From assembly GCA_964648045.1 (NCBI GenBank), contig CAZYNU010000001.1, positions 17,208 through 81,207 on the forward strand: 64,000 nucleotides of DNA, read 5' to 3'. The stretch's first letter is position 1. Each line of letters begins with the position of its first letter. The stretch comes from an uncultured Candidatus Peribacteria bacterium. Lineage in GTDB: Bacteria > Patescibacteriota > Gracilibacteria > Peribacterales > Peribacteraceae. The notes under the pieces are model-generated. The model did not search any database, had not been told where the DNA came from, and worked only from the letters and a program-made list of their open reading frames with translations. The position numbers and the translations under genes are program-made. Below, one piece after another: positions 794-6,843 of this stretch.

Positions 794-1906
794 ATGTCGC
801 TCCACCGCTCAGTCATCGACCCTCTCCTGCGCCATATCGATTCAGAGAGAGGCCACTCGGCAGCCGTGGAAGTGCTGCATTTCTTACAGAGCGGCCCCAT
901 CCGTCGCCGACTTCTTCGCCTCCTCTCCGGCCCACGCGTTGAAGACCCGCGCCTGCACATGAAATTGGGCAGCCTTACCCTTGAGAATCCCCTCCTCGTC
1001 GGCGCCGGCTGGGACAAGAAAGGGCGGGCCGTGCGCGCTCTGCACGAAATTGGCTTCGCGGGCGTAGAGGTGGGCAGCGTCCTGCAACACCCACAACCCG
1101 GCAATCCCAAGCCTCGGCAGTTCATGATCGGCGACGGCGTAAGCCTCAACCGCTTAGGCTTCAACAGTCCGGGAATGGAGGTGGTGGCTCAAAACCTCGC
1201 CGCTTACGGCAATAACAGCATTCCCATTGGCATTAGCCTGGGAAAAAATAAGGAAGTAGAAGCTGCCAATGCGCCCGAAGCGCACGCCGCCGTCGCCCGC
1301 CGGTTGGCGGACCGCGCCGCCTACTTCGCGATCAATGTCTCGTCGCCCAACACGCCCGGCCTGCGCTCGCTGCAGGAAAAAGGACCGCTCACGGACATCC
1401 TCCAGGCGGTGCGCGGAGCGCTGGCGGACATGGATCATGACACCGACATCTTCGTGAAGATCGCGCCGGACCTGGAACTGAGCGCCGTCGACGATGTGGT
1501 CGACGTGGCCGTCTCGCAGGGCGCGACCGGAATCATCGCCTCCAACACCACCATCCGCCCCGAGCTGAAGGCCAAATACGGCGAGCGCTGGCGCGGCGAG
1601 GCTGGCGGCCTGAGCGGCGACGACACCGAGTTCCGCGCCATGAGCACGCGCCAGATCGCCCACATCCACCGGCAGGCGACGGACGAGCTGGCCATCATCG
1701 GCGTAGGCGGTGTGAAGGACGCCGCGACCGCCCTGCAGAAGATCCGCGCCGGAGCCTCGGCCTTGCAGCTGGTGACAGCCCTGCGCGGCGAAGGCCTCGG
1801 CGTAGCCAACGCCATCAATCGCGGATTGCTGGCCTGGATGGACCGCTACGGCGTCAAAGAGCTCGAGAACATCCGCGGCATCGACGTCCACAATCCCCTC
1901 CTATGA
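794..1906 (+). CDS. pyrD: Dihydroorotate dehydrogenase (quinone), class 2
   Basis: 370-aa ORF with NRLGFNSPG, INVSSPNTPGLRSLQ, GGLSG and IIGVGGV motifs characteristic of class-2 DHODH. Confidence 0.9.
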   Translation: MSLHRSVIDPLLRHIDSERGHSAAVEVLHFLQSGPIRRRLLRLLSGPRVEDPRLHMKLGSLTLENPLLVGAGWDKKGRAVRALHEIGFAGVEVGSVLQHPQPGNPKPRQFMIGDGVSLNRLGFNSPGMEVVAQNLAAYGNNSIPIGISLGKNKEVEAANAPEAHAAVARRLADRAAYFAINVSSPNTPGLRSLQEKGPLTDILQAVRGALADMDHDTDIFVKIAPDLELSAVDDVVDVAVSQGATGIIASNTTIRPELKAKYGERWRGEAGGLSGDDTEFRAMSTRQIAHIHRQATDELAIIGVGGVKDAATALQKIRAGASALQLVTALRGEGLGVANAINRGLLAWMDRYGVKELENIRGIDVHNPLL

Positions 1907-2751
1907 CCGTCCCCTCCCATCTGCTTTCGCTTCAAGAGGATGACTTGCGCCTGGCTGCCGAAGCGGCCGAGGCCGCGGGCGCCATCATTCGCCGTGGCAA
2001 GACCGCGGGCGTCGCGATCGAGCAGAAAGGCTTCGCCGACCTGGTGAGCGACGTGGACAAGGAAGCCGACGCCGCCATCGCCACCATCATCCGCAGCGCC
2101 CGTCCCAAGGACTCGATCGTCTCGGAAGAGCTGGAGCCGGACACCAAGGAACGCACCGGCCGCCTCTGGTTCGTCGATCCGCTCGACGGCACCAGCGGCT
2201 TCCTGTTCGGCGCCGGCGGCGACGTACCGGCCGTGCTGATCGCGCTCCGAGAGGACAGCGAGTACCGCCTGGGCGTCGTCCACTTCCCACTGACCGGTGA
2301 GTGGTTCTATGCGAGCGCAGGAAAGGGGGCATATCGCGATGGCGAGACGCTGGACGCCACGAAGTCCGTAGCCAGCCTGCGCGAGGCCTGGGTGGCCATG
2401 AACGCCTACGGCGACGCCCAGTACGAGAGCGCCGGCTTCGCCACGCTCCGGCGCGAGCTGCGGTCGGCGGCACGCGGCGCTCCGCTGGTGACCACTCCCC
2501 CGCCCCACTCGGGCATCGCGCTGCGCATTCTGGAACCCGGCCGCCGGCTGGGCGCCGTCATCCACGACAACGCCCCGCAGAAGGTGAAGCAAGGCCCGTG
2601 GGACATCGCCGCGCCCCAGGCCATCCTGGAGGAGGCGGGCGGCTGTTTCATCAACTTCGCCGGCGGTCGCGTGGACCCGTTCACGGCCGAACCGATGATT
2701 GCCTGCGGGCACCGCGAGTTGGCGGAAGAGATCCTGTCGCTGCTGCGGTAA
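1903..2751 (+). CDS. Inositol monophosphatase family protein
   Basis: 282-aa ORF with EELEPD and WFVDPLDGTSGF metal-binding motifs. ATGA start/stop overlap with pyrD. Confidence 0.85.
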   Translation: MTVPSHLLSLQEDDLRLAAEAAEAAGAIIRRGKTAGVAIEQKGFADLVSDVDKEADAAIATIIRSARPKDSIVSEELEPDTKERTGRLWFVDPLDGTSGFLFGAGGDVPAVLIALREDSEYRLGVVHFPLTGEWFYASAGKGAYRDGETLDATKSVASLREAWVAMNAYGDAQYESAGFATLRRELRSAARGAPLVTTPPPHSGIALRILEPGRRLGAVIHDNAPQKVKQGPWDIAAPQAILEEAGGCFINFAGGRVDPFTAEPMIACGHRELAEEILSLLR

Positions 2752-2767
2752 GACCAGAGGGTACCTC

Positions 2768-2794
2768 AAAAAAGGGCGACCACGGCGGCCGCCC
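2768..2794 (-). terminator. Intrinsic terminator of the Cys-rich mini-ORF
   Basis: On the minus strand: an 8-bp GC-rich stem (GGGCGGCC / GGTCGCCC, one G-U) with a 5-nt loop, then TTTTTT, starting 7 nt after the stop at 2802. The U-run exists only on the minus strand. Confidence 0.65.
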
Positions 2795-2801
2795 GTATCG
2801 C

Positions 2802-2900
2802 TTAGGCGCACTGACAGGACTGACAACTGCACGAAGACGAGGCACCGCAGCCGCAGCCACCCGACGACGCCATGGCACACTGATTGCGCATAGAGAACAT
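2802..2900 (-). CDS. Small cysteine-rich peptide (metallothionein-like, 32 aa)
   Basis: Below the track cut-off. Reads MFSMRNQCAMASSGGCGCGASSSCSCQSCQCA, with 7 Cys in CxC/CxxC spacing and GC-rich third positions, followed by its own terminator. Alternative starts at 2891 and 2873. Confidence 0.45.
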   Translation of the reverse strand: MFSMRNQCAMASSGGCGCGASSSCSCQSCQCA

Positions 2901-2912
2901 GGGAAAGAAGTA

Positions 2913-2931
2913 GGTTCACACAGGATGAACC
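2913..2931. promoter_or_regulatory. Perfect inverted repeat GGTTCA-N7-TGAACC (candidate operator)
   Basis: Lies in the 94-nt divergent region between the Cys-rich mini-ORF and the HxlR-family gene. Confidence 0.35.
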
Positions 2932-2994
2932 ATCAACTTACTAAAGTAAAGTGACTAATGAACTATTTTACAGCGGTGCTGTATACTGGCAGCC

Positions 2995-3342
2995 ATGGCT
3001 CAGTCTACGGCTAGCACATCGTGCGCCTGTCCGATGTACCGCATCATCGAGAAGCTCGGAAAAAAGTGGATGCTCCTGATCCTGCGAGCTTTTACGGAGA
3101 ACAAGCGTTTGCGCTTCTCCGAGATTGAAGCCGCTCTGCCCGAGATCAACGCGCGTATCCTCTCCGAACGCTTAAGCGAAATGGAACAAGAAGGATTAAT
3201 CGTGCGCGTGGTGGAAAACGCCAAACCGATGACCTGCTACTACGAAATCACGGAGAAGGGCATGGACCTACGCACGATATTCAGCGGCGTGGTTGCTTGG
3301 GCGAAGAAGTGGGAACGCTGCCCAGCCGAGAAACGACCCTAA
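2995..3342 (+). CDS. HxlR family transcriptional regulator
   Basis: 115-aa ORF. CPMYRIIEKLGKKWMLLIL ... RFSEIEAALPEINARILSERLSEMEQEGLI is the HxlR winged-helix pattern. TATACT (2982-2987) lies 7 nt before the ATG. Confidence 0.85.
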   Translation: MAQSTASTSCACPMYRIIEKLGKKWMLLILRAFTENKRLRFSEIEAALPEINARILSERLSEMEQEGLIVRVVENAKPMTCYYEITEKGMDLRTIFSGVVAWAKKWERCPAEKRP

Positions 3343-3717
3343 TTAGGCTTCGACAACGCTCTTGAAGCCGCCGTACGACATGTCCTTCATTTCGAAGGGC
3401 ATCGACTGGGTGTCGAAATTCGGGTCGTTCATGGCGGGGTCGGCCATCACCTTCTTATTCACGCGGTCGCGGTGAGCCTTGTTTTTGAAGACAATGAAAG
3501 AGAAGAACACAACATCATCAGCCCCAGCCTTGACCAGTTTGGGGAAGACGCGACTGGCTGGCCCCGTGGGCGAGGGTGCAAGGTCGTCACCGATCGCCTC
3601 CACATATTGGAGAGCGCCGTGCTTCATCCACACTTTGCGCCCGAGGCGGGCCATTTTCTTGTAGGCTTCCACGTTCTTCTTTGGCATCTTGATGACGAAT
3701 CCGTCGATGTAGGTCAT
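3343..3717 (-). CDS. DUF1428 (YbaA-like) protein
   Basis: The start is trimmed to MTYIDGFVIKMPKKNVEAYKKMA.... The rest of the listed ORF is a low-complexity upstream extension overlapping the next gene. Confidence 0.7.
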   Translation of the reverse strand: MTYIDGFVIKMPKKNVEAYKKMARLGRKVWMKHGALQYVEAIGDDLAPSPTGPASRVFPKLVKAGADDVVFFSFIVFKNKAHRDRVNKKVMADPAMNDPNFDTQSMPFEMKDMSYGGFKSVVEA

Positions 3718-4213: not shown

Positions 4214-4744
4214 TTACTTGGCGGTCTCGACGATCGCCTTGAGGTCGTTGAGGCCTTTCTCGAACTGCGGGCCGATCATCTTCTTGTCCATGTCCATCAT
4301 CAGGTGGATGGCCTTCCCCATGAACCCGTTCTTGCCGTACATCGTCTGTGTGACGAGCGTGCCGGCGCCCTCGGGCTTGAAGGTGAAGTCGGTCATGTGG
4401 TTGGCCTTGAACGGCACCTCGAAGTTGAGCGCCAGGCGGATGATCTCGTTGGGATTGCTCTCCAGGATCTGCATGTTGCCCGCGCCGACGTTCTTGTTGC
4501 CGACCCAGGCGTAGGTGGCGCCAACGCCCTGGGGCGAGCCGCCAAAGGTACGCTTCGTGTTGGGATCGAGCTTCTCCCACGGCGACCAGGCCACCCACTG
4601 GTGGAAGTCGTTGATGTGCGGGAACACGGCCTCGGGCGGAGCCATCACCACCACCGAGCGCGAGATGCGGAAATTGCCGGACTGCATGGCCACGAAGGCG
4701 ATGAGCAGGACGAGGACGGCCAGGAATAGGAAGAGGTACAGCAT
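4214..4744 (-). CDS. SRPBCC/polyketide-cyclase-like protein with N-terminal membrane helix
   Basis: The start at MLYLFLFLAVLVLLIAFVAM avoids overlap with the upstream gene. An SRPBCC-like core follows (INDFHQWVAWSPW...). Confidence 0.7.
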   Translation of the reverse strand: MLYLFLFLAVLVLLIAFVAMQSGNFRISRSVVVMAPPEAVFPHINDFHQWVAWSPWEKLDPNTKRTFGGSPQGVGATYAWVGNKNVGAGNMQILESNPNEIIRLALNFEVPFKANHMTDFTFKPEGAGTLVTQTMYGKNGFMGKAIHLMMDMDKKMIGPQFEKGLNDLKAIVETAK

Positions 4745-4769
4745 GGGAGGAGAAGGAAGTACTGGGATC

Positions 4770-5252
4770 TTAGCGCAGAACGACGGCAAACTTATCGAGC
4801 GACTCGTTCCAGCCCTGCTCGGCGTAGCCGGCCATCTCCTCGGGGTGGCCCGTGTGCACGAGCGTCAGCTCGGTGCGGCCGTCGCCCAGGTCCTTAAACG
4901 TCACCGTCACAAGCATCTCTTCGGGCCACTCGCCCGGCATGCCGAAGTCCTTGGGCGAGACAATGTTGCCCTCGGCGTCGGCGAAGTGGTCGGCGTAGAC
5001 GATTTTCTGGAACGGCACGATCTCCCGGTAGACAGCGAGGCTCCACATATCCTTATCAAAATCGCTGCCGGCCGGACCGCGCATGCAGAAGTGGCCCTTA
5101 CCGCCCACGCGCAGATCATTCTTGATGGCGGGCGCAGTGAAGATAGCCGGACCCCACCAACGCTTGATGTGCTCGGGGTCTGTCCACGCTTCCCAAACGC
5201 GCTCCATCGGAGCATCGAAGGTGCGGGTGATGGTGAGGGTCTTCGTAGGCAT
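4770..5252 (-). CDS. SRPBCC superfamily protein (AHSA1/Aha1-like domain)
   Basis: 160 aa. ITRTFDAPMERVWEAWTDPEHIKRWWGP. A paralogue of 3746..4195. Confidence 0.8.
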   Translation of the reverse strand: MPTKTLTITRTFDAPMERVWEAWTDPEHIKRWWGPAIFTAPAIKNDLRVGGKGHFCMRGPAGSDFDKDMWSLAVYREIVPFQKIVYADHFADAEGNIVSPKDFGMPGEWPEEMLVTVTFKDLGDGRTELTLVHTGHPEEMAGYAEQGWNESLDKFAVVLR

Positions 5253-5279
5253 ACGGAAAGGGGAAAGGATGAAGGCGAA

Positions 5280-5624
5280 TCAGGCGTCCTTGCGACCGAA
5301 GGGCCAGGCAGCGAGGTATTTTTCCAGGCGGTCGAAGCGGGTATTCCAGAGTCGCTCGTACTCCTGAAGGTAGTCCGCAGCGCAGTGGAGCGCCTCGCCA
5401 GAGAGTTCGACCACCTGCTCGCGTCCGCGCCGACGCTTCGTCACGAGCCGGGCACGCTCGAGAATCTTGATGTGCTTCGAGACGGCGGCAAACGTGAGAT
5501 CGTAAGAGCGCGCCATACCCCCTACCGTCAGACGCTCGCGTGCACCGCGTCGGAGAATGTCCCGCCGCACAGGATGGGCGAGTGATCCAAACACCAGATC
5601 AAGGTCGACAACACGTTCAACCAT
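5280..5624 (-). CDS. ArsR/SmtB family transcriptional regulator
   Basis: 114 aa. LAHPVRRDILRR ... VGGMARSYDLTFAAVSKHIKILERARLV is an ArsR-type helix-turn-helix. Confidence 0.85.
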   Translation of the reverse strand: MVERVVDLDLVFGSLAHPVRRDILRRGARERLTVGGMARSYDLTFAAVSKHIKILERARLVTKRRRGREQVVELSGEALHCAADYLQEYERLWNTRFDRLEKYLAAWPFGRKDA

Positions 5625-5633
5625 ATGGTTGAA
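5616..5633. promoter_or_regulatory. Perfect 18-bp palindrome TTCAACCATATGGTTGAA (candidate ArsR operator)
   Basis: Centred on the arsR-family start codon (CAT at 5622-5624). A TATCAT -10-like hexamer (5633-5638, minus strand) sits immediately upstream. Confidence 0.5.
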
Positions 5634-5748
5634 TGATAAATGACCGTATTTCCGGGGTCAAGCGGGCGGCAAGCAAGCACCTTTCCTGTAACGATCTACC
5701 CGCTCGGACGTATAAGTGGGCGTACGGTCTCCCACTTCCCCACTCCTT

Positions 5749-6843
5749 ATGCGCGTCCCGCTCTCCATCCTCACCCTGACGATCGCCGCCGCCCTCGGCG
5801 CGGCCGTCGCCTCCTCGCCCGCCTCCGCCCGCGTGATCGCGCCGGATTGCGGCCCCAGCTACGTCCGCTGCGGCAGCGGCTACGAGCCTGTCTGCAAGGA
5901 CGACGGCAAATGGGCCTGCCTACCCAACGACTCCGAGTCCGCCTGCGGTCCCAACAACGTCCGCTGTATGGAAGGCTACGACCCCGTCTGTGGTAATGAC
6001 GGCCGGTGGCAGTGCGTCACCGATAGCGGCTCTTCCTCCAGCGACCAGAGCTGCGGCTCGCCGAGCGCTATCCTCTGCATGGTCGGCACCATGCCCGAGT
6101 GCGTGCATGGCGACTGGACCTGCGTGCCCCACAGCTCATCATCGAGCGCGTCTTCCTGCCCCACTGTGGAAGTGCTCTGCATGACCGGTACCGCGGCTGC
6201 CTGCCAGGACGGCTCGTGGGAATGCCTGCCCACGCCCGACGCTTGCGCCGACGCCGACCCGATCTACTGCTTCCAGGGCACGCCCATCTGCCGCGATGGC
6301 AGCTGGCACTGCCCCTCCACCGTCGGCCCGCTGGAACTCGACCGCCTCTCGCCTGACTCCGGCCGCGCCGGCCAGCGCGTCGTGATCTCGGGCCAGAGTT
6401 TCACGCGCACGGGCAACACCGTCTACTTCGACGGCAGCGTCCTGGAGAACCTGCGCTCGCGCCAGCGCGGCACCAAGCTGGTCTTCCGCGTCCCGGCCAA
6501 GACCACGCTCCCCTGCCTGCCCTTCTGCAAGATCGCCGTGCTGCCCTACGGCCCCGGCGAGTACGACGTCTCCGTGGAGAACAAGGACGGGGCCGTCAGC
6601 AACAGTCTGACCTTCACGATCACGGGCTCAGCCTCGTCGAGTTCCTCCTCATCTTCTAGCGGGGATAGCTGCCTCTGCCCGGCCGGCCAGGCCGCGACGG
6701 CCGACGGCTGCACCGACATGGAGATGATGTGCCCGATGTACTACCTGGAGGGCGGCTGGTGCGGCTGCGATGGCGAAGTCTACGGCAACAGCTGCATCGC
6801 CGCTGCCAACGGCGTGAAGCGAGGGGAAAATTGCGTACAATGA
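5749..6843 (+). CDS. Secreted Cys-repeat protein with IPT/TIG-like and Kazal-like modules
   Basis: Signal peptide MRVPLSILTLTIAAALGAAVASSPASA, then five 4-Cys repeats, an IPT/TIG-like segment (LSPDSGRAGQRVVISGQSF), a poly-Ser linker and a C-terminal CGCDGEVYGNSC Kazal-like motif. Confidence 0.65.
   Translation: MRVPLSILTLTIAAALGAAVASSPASARVIAPDCGPSYVRCGSGYEPVCKDDGKWACLPNDSESACGPNNVRCMEGYDPVCGNDGRWQCVTDSGSSSSDQSCGSPSAILCMVGTMPECVHGDWTCVPHSSSSSASSCPTVEVLCMTGTAAACQDGSWECLPTPDACADADPIYCFQGTPICRDGSWHCPSTVGPLELDRLSPDSGRAGQRVVISGQSFTRTGNTVYFDGSVLENLRSRQRGTKLVFRVPAKTTLPCLPFCKIAVLPYGPGEYDVSVENKDGAVSNSLTFTITGSASSSSSSSSSGDSCLCPAGQAATADGCTDMEMMCPMYYLEGGWCGCDGEVYGNSCIAAANGVKRGENCVQ

Follow-up and report, generated by a model that had tools for sequence, protein, structure and literature searches.

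A cysteine-rich mini-gene divergent from an HxlR/YodB-type regulator in a Candidatus Peribacteria genome: a probable thiol peptide truncated from a longer protein

The window, i.e., the whole stretch of 64,000 nucleotides (nt) of contig CAZYNU010000001.1 analysed here, comes from an uncultured Candidatus Peribacteria bacterium and carries on its minus strand a very short open reading frame (ORF) rich in Cys, back to back with a gene for an HxlR-family regulator. An earlier reading of the sequence only had seen in the two a regulator and a metallothionein-like peptide that ORF callers would miss. Is such a short frame a gene and, if it is, what could its product do? The comparison with relatives leads to the conclusions that: (i) the mini-ORF appears to be a real, separately transcribed gene without annotation; (ii) it reads as a truncation of a longer gene, of which the first 29 codons are kept; (iii) a small peptide that binds metals or toxins is probably still produced from it. 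The full reading, i.e., a real, separately transcribed gene for a stress-derepressed, metallothionein-like thiol sink paired with HxlR, is held with slightly better than even confidence.

The two genes are located as follows:
2802 to 2900, minus strand: Cys-rich mini-ORF, stop included, from the ORF list; 32 amino acids (aa) from the first ATG (2900)
2995 to 3342, plus strand: HxlR/YodB-type winged-helix regulator of 115 aa (PF01638, 6e-22), with a C10-A-C12-P motif and Cys109

Read from the first ATG, the product of the mini-ORF is MFSMRNQCAMASSGGCGCGASSSCSCQSCQCA, i.e., 32 aa with 7 Cys, spaced as CGC, CSC, CQSC and CQC. A second ATG at 2891 gives 29 aa, MRNQCAMASSGGCGCGASSSCSCQSCQCA, with the same 7 Cys, and by its position appears to be the start homologous to that of the relatives. 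The TAA stop is at 2804-2802. The next gene on this side is convergent (inositol-monophosphatase family, ending at 2751), and the mini-ORF therefore has no downstream gene to attenuate. The 7-Cys frame and the G+C-rich third positions pointed out by the sequence-only reading are both present: 23 of the 32 codons end in G or C (manual count), in a genome with 60% G+C (1.07-Mb assembly, 96% complete). The share of Cys is 7/32 (22%) or 7/29 (24%) and lies within the range used to define metallothioneins (about 15-30%, in C-x-C, C-C or C-x-x-C arrangements), as does the size of 29-32 aa (<10 kDa). Phe occurs once in the 32-aa form and not at all in the 29-aa form; His, Tyr and Trp are absent from both.

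A set of about 15 billion predicted proteins contains neither the 32-aa nor the 29-aa product, and the short-form ORFs of the relatives are missing from it as well, so that the view that gene callers overlook this peptide is borne out. The peptide has no Pfam match at E up to 1, including the bacterial metallothionein family Metallothio_Pro (PF02069; BmtA/SmtA), and no NCBIfam match. The four short-form relatives have no Pfam match at E up to 10 (PF02069 included) and no NCBIfam match either. It must be stressed that Cys richness alone is weak evidence for a gene: 42 of the 14,944 ORFs with 20 aa or more in the genome reach 7 Cys per 32 residues, and most of the top-ranked ones look to us like out-of-frame artefacts. 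The mini-ORF is considered to be above chance because its frame, its Cys positions and its flanking signals are found again next to orthologous regulators.

Of the 200 genomes of the order that were searched, 12 have an orthologue of the regulator, with 51-58% identity. A Cys-rich ORF lies directly upstream on the opposite strand in 6 of these 12, i.e., the window genome, G002 of the same genus and all four HxlR-bearing g33 genomes (42-56 aa, 9-12 Cys). A scan of metagenomes with the HxlR alignment gives a Cys-rich ORF in 16 of 22 loci whose HxlR is at least 53% identical, plus an 11-aa remnant only in 2 further loci of these 22; additional copies are thus obtained, as well as three lineages not reached before (L039, L040 and L058). 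Conservation of the frame and of the Cys positions at homologous loci was the check that the sequence-only reading had named; it was run, and both are conserved there.

These homologues are not reached by sequence similarity of the peptide. A six-frame search of 60 relatives with the 32-aa peptide returns chance-level matches only (E at least 0.14) and misses the true homologue in G002, and a BLASTP comparison of the peptide with the G002 protein is not significant after composition correction. Low-complexity peptides of this kind need synteny rather than similarity search. The search of contigs for HxlR-related loci gives only distant regulators (at most 42% identical; Methanimicrococcus, Bosea and others), and the exact look-up of the window HxlR finds no second contig with the same sequence. 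Synteny within the genus was considered as evidence and set aside as uninformative: the «same-genus» genomes have 55-57% identity in the neighbouring enzyme, which in G002 is on a different contig from the HxlR pair.

The flanking signals of the two genes are:
2768 to 2794, minus strand: intrinsic terminator of the mini-gene (terminator scan), with a stem-loop at 2794-2774 followed by T6 at 2773-2768
2965 to 2992, minus strand: sigma-70-like promoter of the mini-gene, with -35 CTGCCA (2992-2987), a 16-nt spacer and -10 TAAAAT (2970-2965)
2901 to 2913, minus strand: pyrimidine-rich pre-start element CTACTTCTTTCCC, in the place of a Shine-Dalgarno (SD) site, 9 nt before the ATG at 2891
2982 to 2987, plus strand: -10-like TATACT, read from the sequence, 7 nt before the ATG of hxlR

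The 8-bp G+C hairpin with a run of six T on the minus strand only, already described by the sequence-only reading, is confirmed. It begins 7 nt past the TAA stop and has a folding energy of -16.9 kcal/mol (z -2.5); the same hairpin on the plus strand is weaker (-12.4 kcal/mol) and has no T/U run. Two terminator-like sites are found against 1.4 expected from shuffles. A hairpin with a T-rich tail is located just past the stop in every family member examined (weak in L040). The promoter of the mini-gene is the only promoter-like site in 2300-3600 (shuffle mean 0.2), and the putative transcription start is placed from it. Its -10 region is weakly conserved across ten homologous loci as an A/T-rich stretch; G002 has the A/T-rich hexamer TATTAT at about the same place.

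No SD site precedes the mini-ORF, and this is normal here since only about 12% of the long ORFs of the window genome have an SD-like site; the 3' end of its 16S RNA is canonical (...CACCTCCTTA). Almost every family locus has a motif of the TTTCYTHCCC type 7-10 nt ahead of the ATG (it is weaker in L039), and so do paralogues without an HxlR neighbour. Seven of the 12 occurrences of TTTCYTHCCC in the genome are located 4-10 nt before the start codon (ATG, one GTG) of an ORF of at least 80 aa. Upstream of long ORFs, pyrimidine 5-mers are enriched 3.4-4.9-fold (TCCCC 4.9, TTCCC 4.4, CCTCC 3.6), and Peribacteria may thus use a C/U-rich, SD-independent initiation signal. In the 25 nt upstream of ORF starts genome-wide, TATAC is enriched 8.6-fold and ATACT 6.3-fold; these pieces of -10-like elements may reflect leaderless mRNAs. 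In the same manner, the position of TATACT suggests a leaderless or near-leaderless hxlR mRNA.

The origin of the mini-gene is best seen from its longer relatives. In G002, L040, L058 and L039 the frame continues into ...AKxCLLKDKIKAxLExKIGKKLDxxADLAVE..., and the proteins have 101-126 aa. Within the family, conservation is highest in this helix, and the N-termini of the homologues that have been called as genes (P0003-P0007) are rich in Cys, His and Met. For the long form, AlphaFold2 predicts a disordered segment (residues 1-53; predicted local distance difference test, pLDDT, <50) followed by one helix (residues 55-125, pLDDT about 90). The ancestral protein is of 101-126 aa, with a disordered Cys/His/Met-rich N-terminus and a single long conserved helix. 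A fold search with the long form was judged not worthwhile, given a model made of a disordered N-terminus and a single helix.

A profile search (A4) gives 258 clusters at 50% identity, of which 55 at E of at most 1e-10. Among the members are proteins of metagenome-assembled genomes (MAGs) labelled Parachlamydia and Micrarchaeota, besides those of the Candidate Phyla Radiation (CPR). Every member that its source names is a «hypothetical protein», and neither the long nor the short forms match a Pfam or NCBIfam family. The G002 gene is represented in the NCBI and Logan sets by its last 65 residues only; the full 101 aa is found once, in ENA. Some N-termini of the family (among P0003-P0155) are Hpn-like and poly-His, e.g., MTHHHHHNGHCDICCAHGEHH... 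Most long-form members are not beside HxlR (loci L103, L105, L106, L112 and L113), and G079 has two paralogues without operator.

When compared with this family (codon alignment to L114 and L115), the window ORF has the M-[HR]-N-Q-C start and the C-G-C-G core. The KIGKKLD helix (AKxCLLKDKIKxxLExKIGKKLDxxADxAV) is absent from it, and the profile finds nothing in its own genome. The window copy is considered as a truncated derivative rather than as a full member because the ORF stops after residue 29 and the helix is absent. Of the metallothionein-like pair first proposed, the Cys-rich composition and the pairing with HxlR are thus kept; the stand-alone nature of the peptide is not, since it reads as the truncated N-terminal module of a family of 101-126 aa.

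The closest regulators are those of L114 (a wastewater metagenome) and L115, respectively 90% and 87% identical to the window HxlR, and both loci carry long forms (108 and 115 aa). L115 is syntenic with the window, with the order Inositol_P, a 183-aa lipoprotein-like gene, the Cys gene (minus strand), HxlR, DUF1428 and SRPBCC, and the flanks are 82-93% identical. The segment 2751-2844 of the window corresponds to 431-1315 of L115, i.e., a net of about 790 nt is missing in the window, including the 183-aa lipoprotein-like gene (MHRALLALLPLSLLLGAC...) and the codons from 30 onwards. In L115 as in L114, this lipoprotein-like gene has the inositol-monophosphatase gene on one side and the Cys-rich gene on the other.

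The window sequence MRNQC-AMASSGG-CGCGASSSCSCQS-CQCA, followed by the stop, aligns with MHNQC...SGG...CGCG..SSCG.E..C.CGCGMQGNCPGGDLM... of the relatives, i.e., with the first 30 residues of L114 and L115, and all seven Cys fall on Cys. In the manual alignment to L114, Cys is kept at 7/7 positions and the other residues at 8/22 (Fisher p = 0.006). The C-terminal SSSCSCQSCQCA was considered as a new tail acquired after the truncation, and this was rejected: it aligns with the Cys-rich residues 17-30 of L114 and L115.

The proportion of synonymous differences (pS) between the window and L114/L115 is 0.55-0.76, and the ratio of non-synonymous to synonymous proportions (pN/pS) is 0.26-0.33 over 25-27 retained codons, for which pS is 0.65-0.76. 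This ratio is similar to that of L114 against L115 (0.23) and to those of the g33 short forms (0.21-0.41), in which all indels are in frame; these Cys-only forms are under purifying selection. The regulator has a pN/pS of 0.11-0.14 when compared with its 87-90% identical relatives.

The match of this regulator to Pfam HxlR (PF01638) has 77.8 bits for a cut-off of 20.8. Its best solved relative is YodB of B. subtilis (5HS7, 4.7e-14), followed by YtcD, HxlR, QsrR and HypR/YybR. Cys12-Pro13 aligns with the sensor Cys-Pro of YodB chain 5HS7; the sensor residue is called Cys6 in the literature on YodB-type regulators (PMC6798810). Cys109 is near the C-terminus (WERCPAEKRP); most orthologues have a C-terminal Cys, which is not strictly aligned to C101/C108 of YodB. 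The regulator is YodB/QsrR-like, with its sensor Cys in place. Most regulators paired with Cys-rich genes carry two nearby Cys, as CxC-P or CC-P. CxC-Pro as a strict mark of the pairing with a Cys gene was weakened by L039, which has CPxxC and is nevertheless paired with a long form.

The gap of 94 nt between the mini-ORF and the start of hxlR (2995), given as such by the sequence-only reading, is correct, and it contains two palindromic elements:
2936 to 2952, no strand: probable HxlR operator ACTTAC-TAAA-GTAAAGT, a conserved block downstream of the -10 of the mini-gene and upstream of the -35 region of hxlR
2913 to 2931, no strand: inverted repeat GGTTCA-N7-TGAACC, able to form a hairpin in the 5' untranslated region (-7.8 kcal/mol)

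Ten homologous intergenic regions, from loci with 41% to 62% G+C, were aligned. The best-conserved intergenic block in all orthologous loci is the first element, with a family form (A)CTTTAC-N4-GTAA(C/G). In the window an extended imperfect palindrome, TCAACTTAC-N4-GTAAAGTGA, spans 2933-2954, and the 27 nt around the operator are 93% identical to L115. The palindrome is also kept upstream of orthologous regulators with other partner genes, and for this reason it is best read as the HxlR operator; ACTTAC-N4-GTAAAGT is thus a probable candidate for this role. The core TTAC-N4-GTAAAG occurs once in the 1.07-Mb genome (0.36 expected per strand), and since it occurs only here, the mini-gene is the only evident target of the regulator besides the regulator itself. 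The second element is the perfect repeat highlighted by the sequence-only reading. It does exist at 2913-2931; its role as an operator is not retained, since it has no conservation in the alignment, and it is probably incidental.

The same regulator and operator are found with other divergent partners in L030, L031, L032, L036, L011, L038, L042, L046, L047, L050 and L051. The partner in L030 is an FMN-reductase-like gene (judged by eye from its N-terminus). In other lineages it is an 88-aa membrane protein, an Hcp-like protein (166-179 aa, DYFLKIDGVSG...) or an unannotated secreted protein of about 115 aa in which the motif KT[FY]VVPHVLERSG is present. The regulator thus seems to have kept its operator while swapping targets.

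In the HxlR tree, whose root is midpoint-plus-outgroup and of which several forks are open, the lineages paired with Cys genes branch from the base of the orthologue group or close to it, and the window, L039 and L040 form a polytomy. The lineages with the secreted 115-aa, Hcp-like and small membrane partners form a derived clade; L030 is outside this clade, as sister to G002. Long forms are spread over the basal HxlR lineages, and Cys-only forms are found twice, in g33 and in the window, where they appear to have arisen independently.

The following mechanism can be proposed. HxlR dimers would bind the operator, into which the beginning of the mini-gene transcript extends, and would thereby repress the mini-gene; they would probably regulate hxlR as well. 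A thiol-reactive stress would modify the sensor Cys12, possibly by linking it to Cys109 of the second subunit through a disulfide, as is the case in YodB. The inducers might be quinones or other electrophiles, oxidants, and perhaps also soft metals, through their binding to the CxC pair. The modified repressor would leave the DNA and the peptide would be made. With 7 thiols in 29 residues, it could chelate soft metals (Cu(I), Zn, Cd) and/or soak up electrophiles and oxidants.

A thiol sink could matter in this organism because no glutamate-cysteine ligase, of either type, for glutathione synthesis is found in the 96%-complete genome; its GSH-S_ATP match is a weak ATP-grasp match that is also obtained in B. 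subtilis. Metal binding is favoured by the His/Met/Cys-rich N-termini of the wider family. Electrophile stress is favoured by the L030 orthologue, which is paired with an FMN-reductase-like gene; FMN reductases are a typical class of YodB/QsrR targets. A more specific version can be put forward tentatively and is, in our judgment, rather unlikely: the CxC-Pro HxlR would sense soft metals and/or thiol stress and switch on an encoded thiol buffer in CPR bacteria seemingly without glutathione synthesis, the Cys/His/Met tail being the active part, pared down to 29-56 aa at least twice.

Several points weigh against a functional thiol sink. Characterised regulators of the YodB/QsrR/HypR type respond to electrophiles and oxidants, the closest solved relatives sense quinones and oxidants rather than metals, and to our knowledge no metal-sensing HxlR has been described. 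The two genes are both absent from three of the four other genomes of the same genus. The window copy has lost the highly conserved helix together with part of the Cys-rich region. The genome is metagenome-assembled, and the assembly may have collapsed in the repetitive GGCTGCGGCTGC tract. A pN/pS value on 25-27 codons is imprecise, also fits a recent deletion, and does not date that deletion. The 11-aa remnant of L054/L057, MFSDDKGGCCG, keeps the promoter, the operator, the pyrimidine motif and the terminator; intact flanking signals are therefore no proof of function, and this remnant looks like the family decaying in place.

The most serious alternative is thus that the mini-ORF is a dead remnant, i.e., the 5' end left over after a recent deletion or nonsense mutation, maybe transcribed, with a 29-aa product that has no function and will decay. 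It is considered as unlikely, though with real weight: the nearest relatives have the full 108- or 115-aa gene where the window lacks about 790 nt, what was lost is the most conserved part of the family, the stump of L054/L057 has intact signals, and the window genome holds no second full-length copy. On the other hand, despite a pS of 0.55-0.76, the frame is open, the 7 Cys codons are kept and pN/pS is low. The regulator is intact and constrained, and its sole genomic operator is here; a clean stop is followed by a strong terminator; Cys-only versions are kept by selection in g33; and a peptide of 25 aa with 7 Cys, that of Neurospora, is a functional metallothionein. It is very unlikely that the locus produces only a non-coding transcript of about 190 nt, i.e., a regulatory small RNA or a by-product of a bidirectional hxlR promoter, in which the ORF would be incidental. 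Such an RNA would agree with a short monocistronic unit without SD site, with a whole transcript that folds slightly better than shuffles (z = -1.95) and with the ease with which G+C-rich genomes yield Cys-rich frames by chance. Against it, the nucleotides diverge freely while the frame, the Cys codons and the in-frame indels are kept (pN/pS <0.4), the frame of the relatives runs into the conserved 65-aa helix domain called by gene callers, and a missing SD site is the norm in this genome. No Rfam family matches (best 11-14 bits for thresholds of 37-52).

Even less credible is a precursor of a ribosomally synthesised and post-translationally modified peptide (ranthipeptide/SCIFF-, methanobactin- or lanthipeptide-like) in place of a metal or thiol sink. 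The window peptide is indeed short, it is rich in Cys, Ser and Gly, and its GGCGC-type motif recalls SCIFF cores. However, it has no NCBIfam or Pfam match, and the SCIFF model TIGR03973 is presumably in the NCBIfam library. The neighbours in the window are genes for inositol monophosphatase, HxlR, DUF1428 and SRPBCC (AHSA1; Pfam), with no radical-SAM or cyclase gene; HxlR excepted, they vary between the family loci. In most relatives, furthermore, the same sequence is the N-terminus of a protein of 101-126 aa.

Returning to the derepressed thiol sink, several known systems can be compared with it. The smtB-smtA pair of Synechococcus PCC 7942 also has a small Cys-rich gene divergent from its own repressor, with the operator in the shared intergenic region, and its peptide gene is likewise a short monocistronic unit. 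However, the window regulator is of the HxlR/YodB type (PF01638) and not an ArsR/SmtB metal sensor, and the peptide, unlike SmtA, does not match PF02069, lacks His and is derived from a longer protein that includes a coiled-coil-like helix. The likeness thus appears to be one of architecture only, i.e., a 94-nt shared region with a conserved palindrome.

YodB, CatR, QsrR and HypR are homologous to the window regulator (4HQM, 4A5M and 7BZE match, besides 5HS7 at 4.7e-14). The N-terminal Cys-Pro is shared, and the target is adjacent and divergent as in the window; the window regulator also has a C-terminal Cys, not strictly aligned to those of YodB, that might form a disulfide between subunits. 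Most of the regulators paired with Cys genes differ from YodB by their two nearby Cys. YodB, CatR and QsrR are thiol-switch repressors; in YodB and CatR, Cys6/7 works with C-terminal Cys residues (Cys101/108), and S-alkylation by quinones is a further possibility in YodB and QsrR (PMC6798810). The known regulons are made of reductases, nitroreductases and dioxygenases (PMC6798810), not of a Cys-rich peptide.

The Cu(I) metallothionein of Neurospora crassa (25 aa, 7 Cys) is like the window peptide in its size, its Gly/Ser filler and its CxC spacing. BLASTP between the window peptide and the Neurospora sequence gives 9/15 identity (GGCGCGASSSCSCQS vs. GDCGCSGASSCNCGS, E = 9e-4 for a single comparison). 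This likeness is one of low complexity and almost certainly convergent. Organism and regulation differ, and no Pfam metallothionein model matches the window peptide. The last of these systems is the KIGKKLD-helix family itself: the window ORF shares with L114 and L115 the M[HR]NQC ... CGCG ... C.C pattern, the motif of the 5' untranslated region, the operator and the genomic position.

In the literature, no paper was found that joins HxlR with «metallothionein» or «cysteine-rich»; metallothionein is not mentioned in the top-ranked papers on CPR, and the only Cys-rich proteins mentioned in the Peribacteria genome paper are large and extracellular. If the peptide is produced and does bind metals or electrophiles, metallothionein-like proteins would be extended to ultra-small CPR bacteria, a thiol-rich peptide would be a new target class in regulons of the YodB/QsrR type, and 258 clusters of «hypothetical proteins», a family still without a name, would obtain a function. 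If the CxC-Pro version is true, the pairing of regulator and metallothionein would be new, possibly with the first metal-responsive member of the HxlR family. The value of the window copy itself is tempered by its truncation, since it may be on its way out. The window ORF, the short forms and the G002 gene are in any case a concrete example of gene callers that miss or mis-start a real gene, and through the operator and the pyrimidine-rich motif, transcription and SD-independent translation in Peribacteria become accessible to tests.

Two minor observations can be added. In L103, three tandem paralogous genes (127-129 aa, ...FFKLLAIKNPELYRE..., no Pfam match) are located at 4533-5786, beside a distant long-form member, and a MacB/RND-type efflux cluster lies upstream of them. 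In the window, a GTG-started ORF of 357 aa (1846-2919, minus strand) is antisense to the inositol-monophosphatase gene over its entire length and also overlaps the mini-ORF, in a different frame. Such antisense frames are typical artefacts of G+C-rich DNA, and this one could mislead gene callers.

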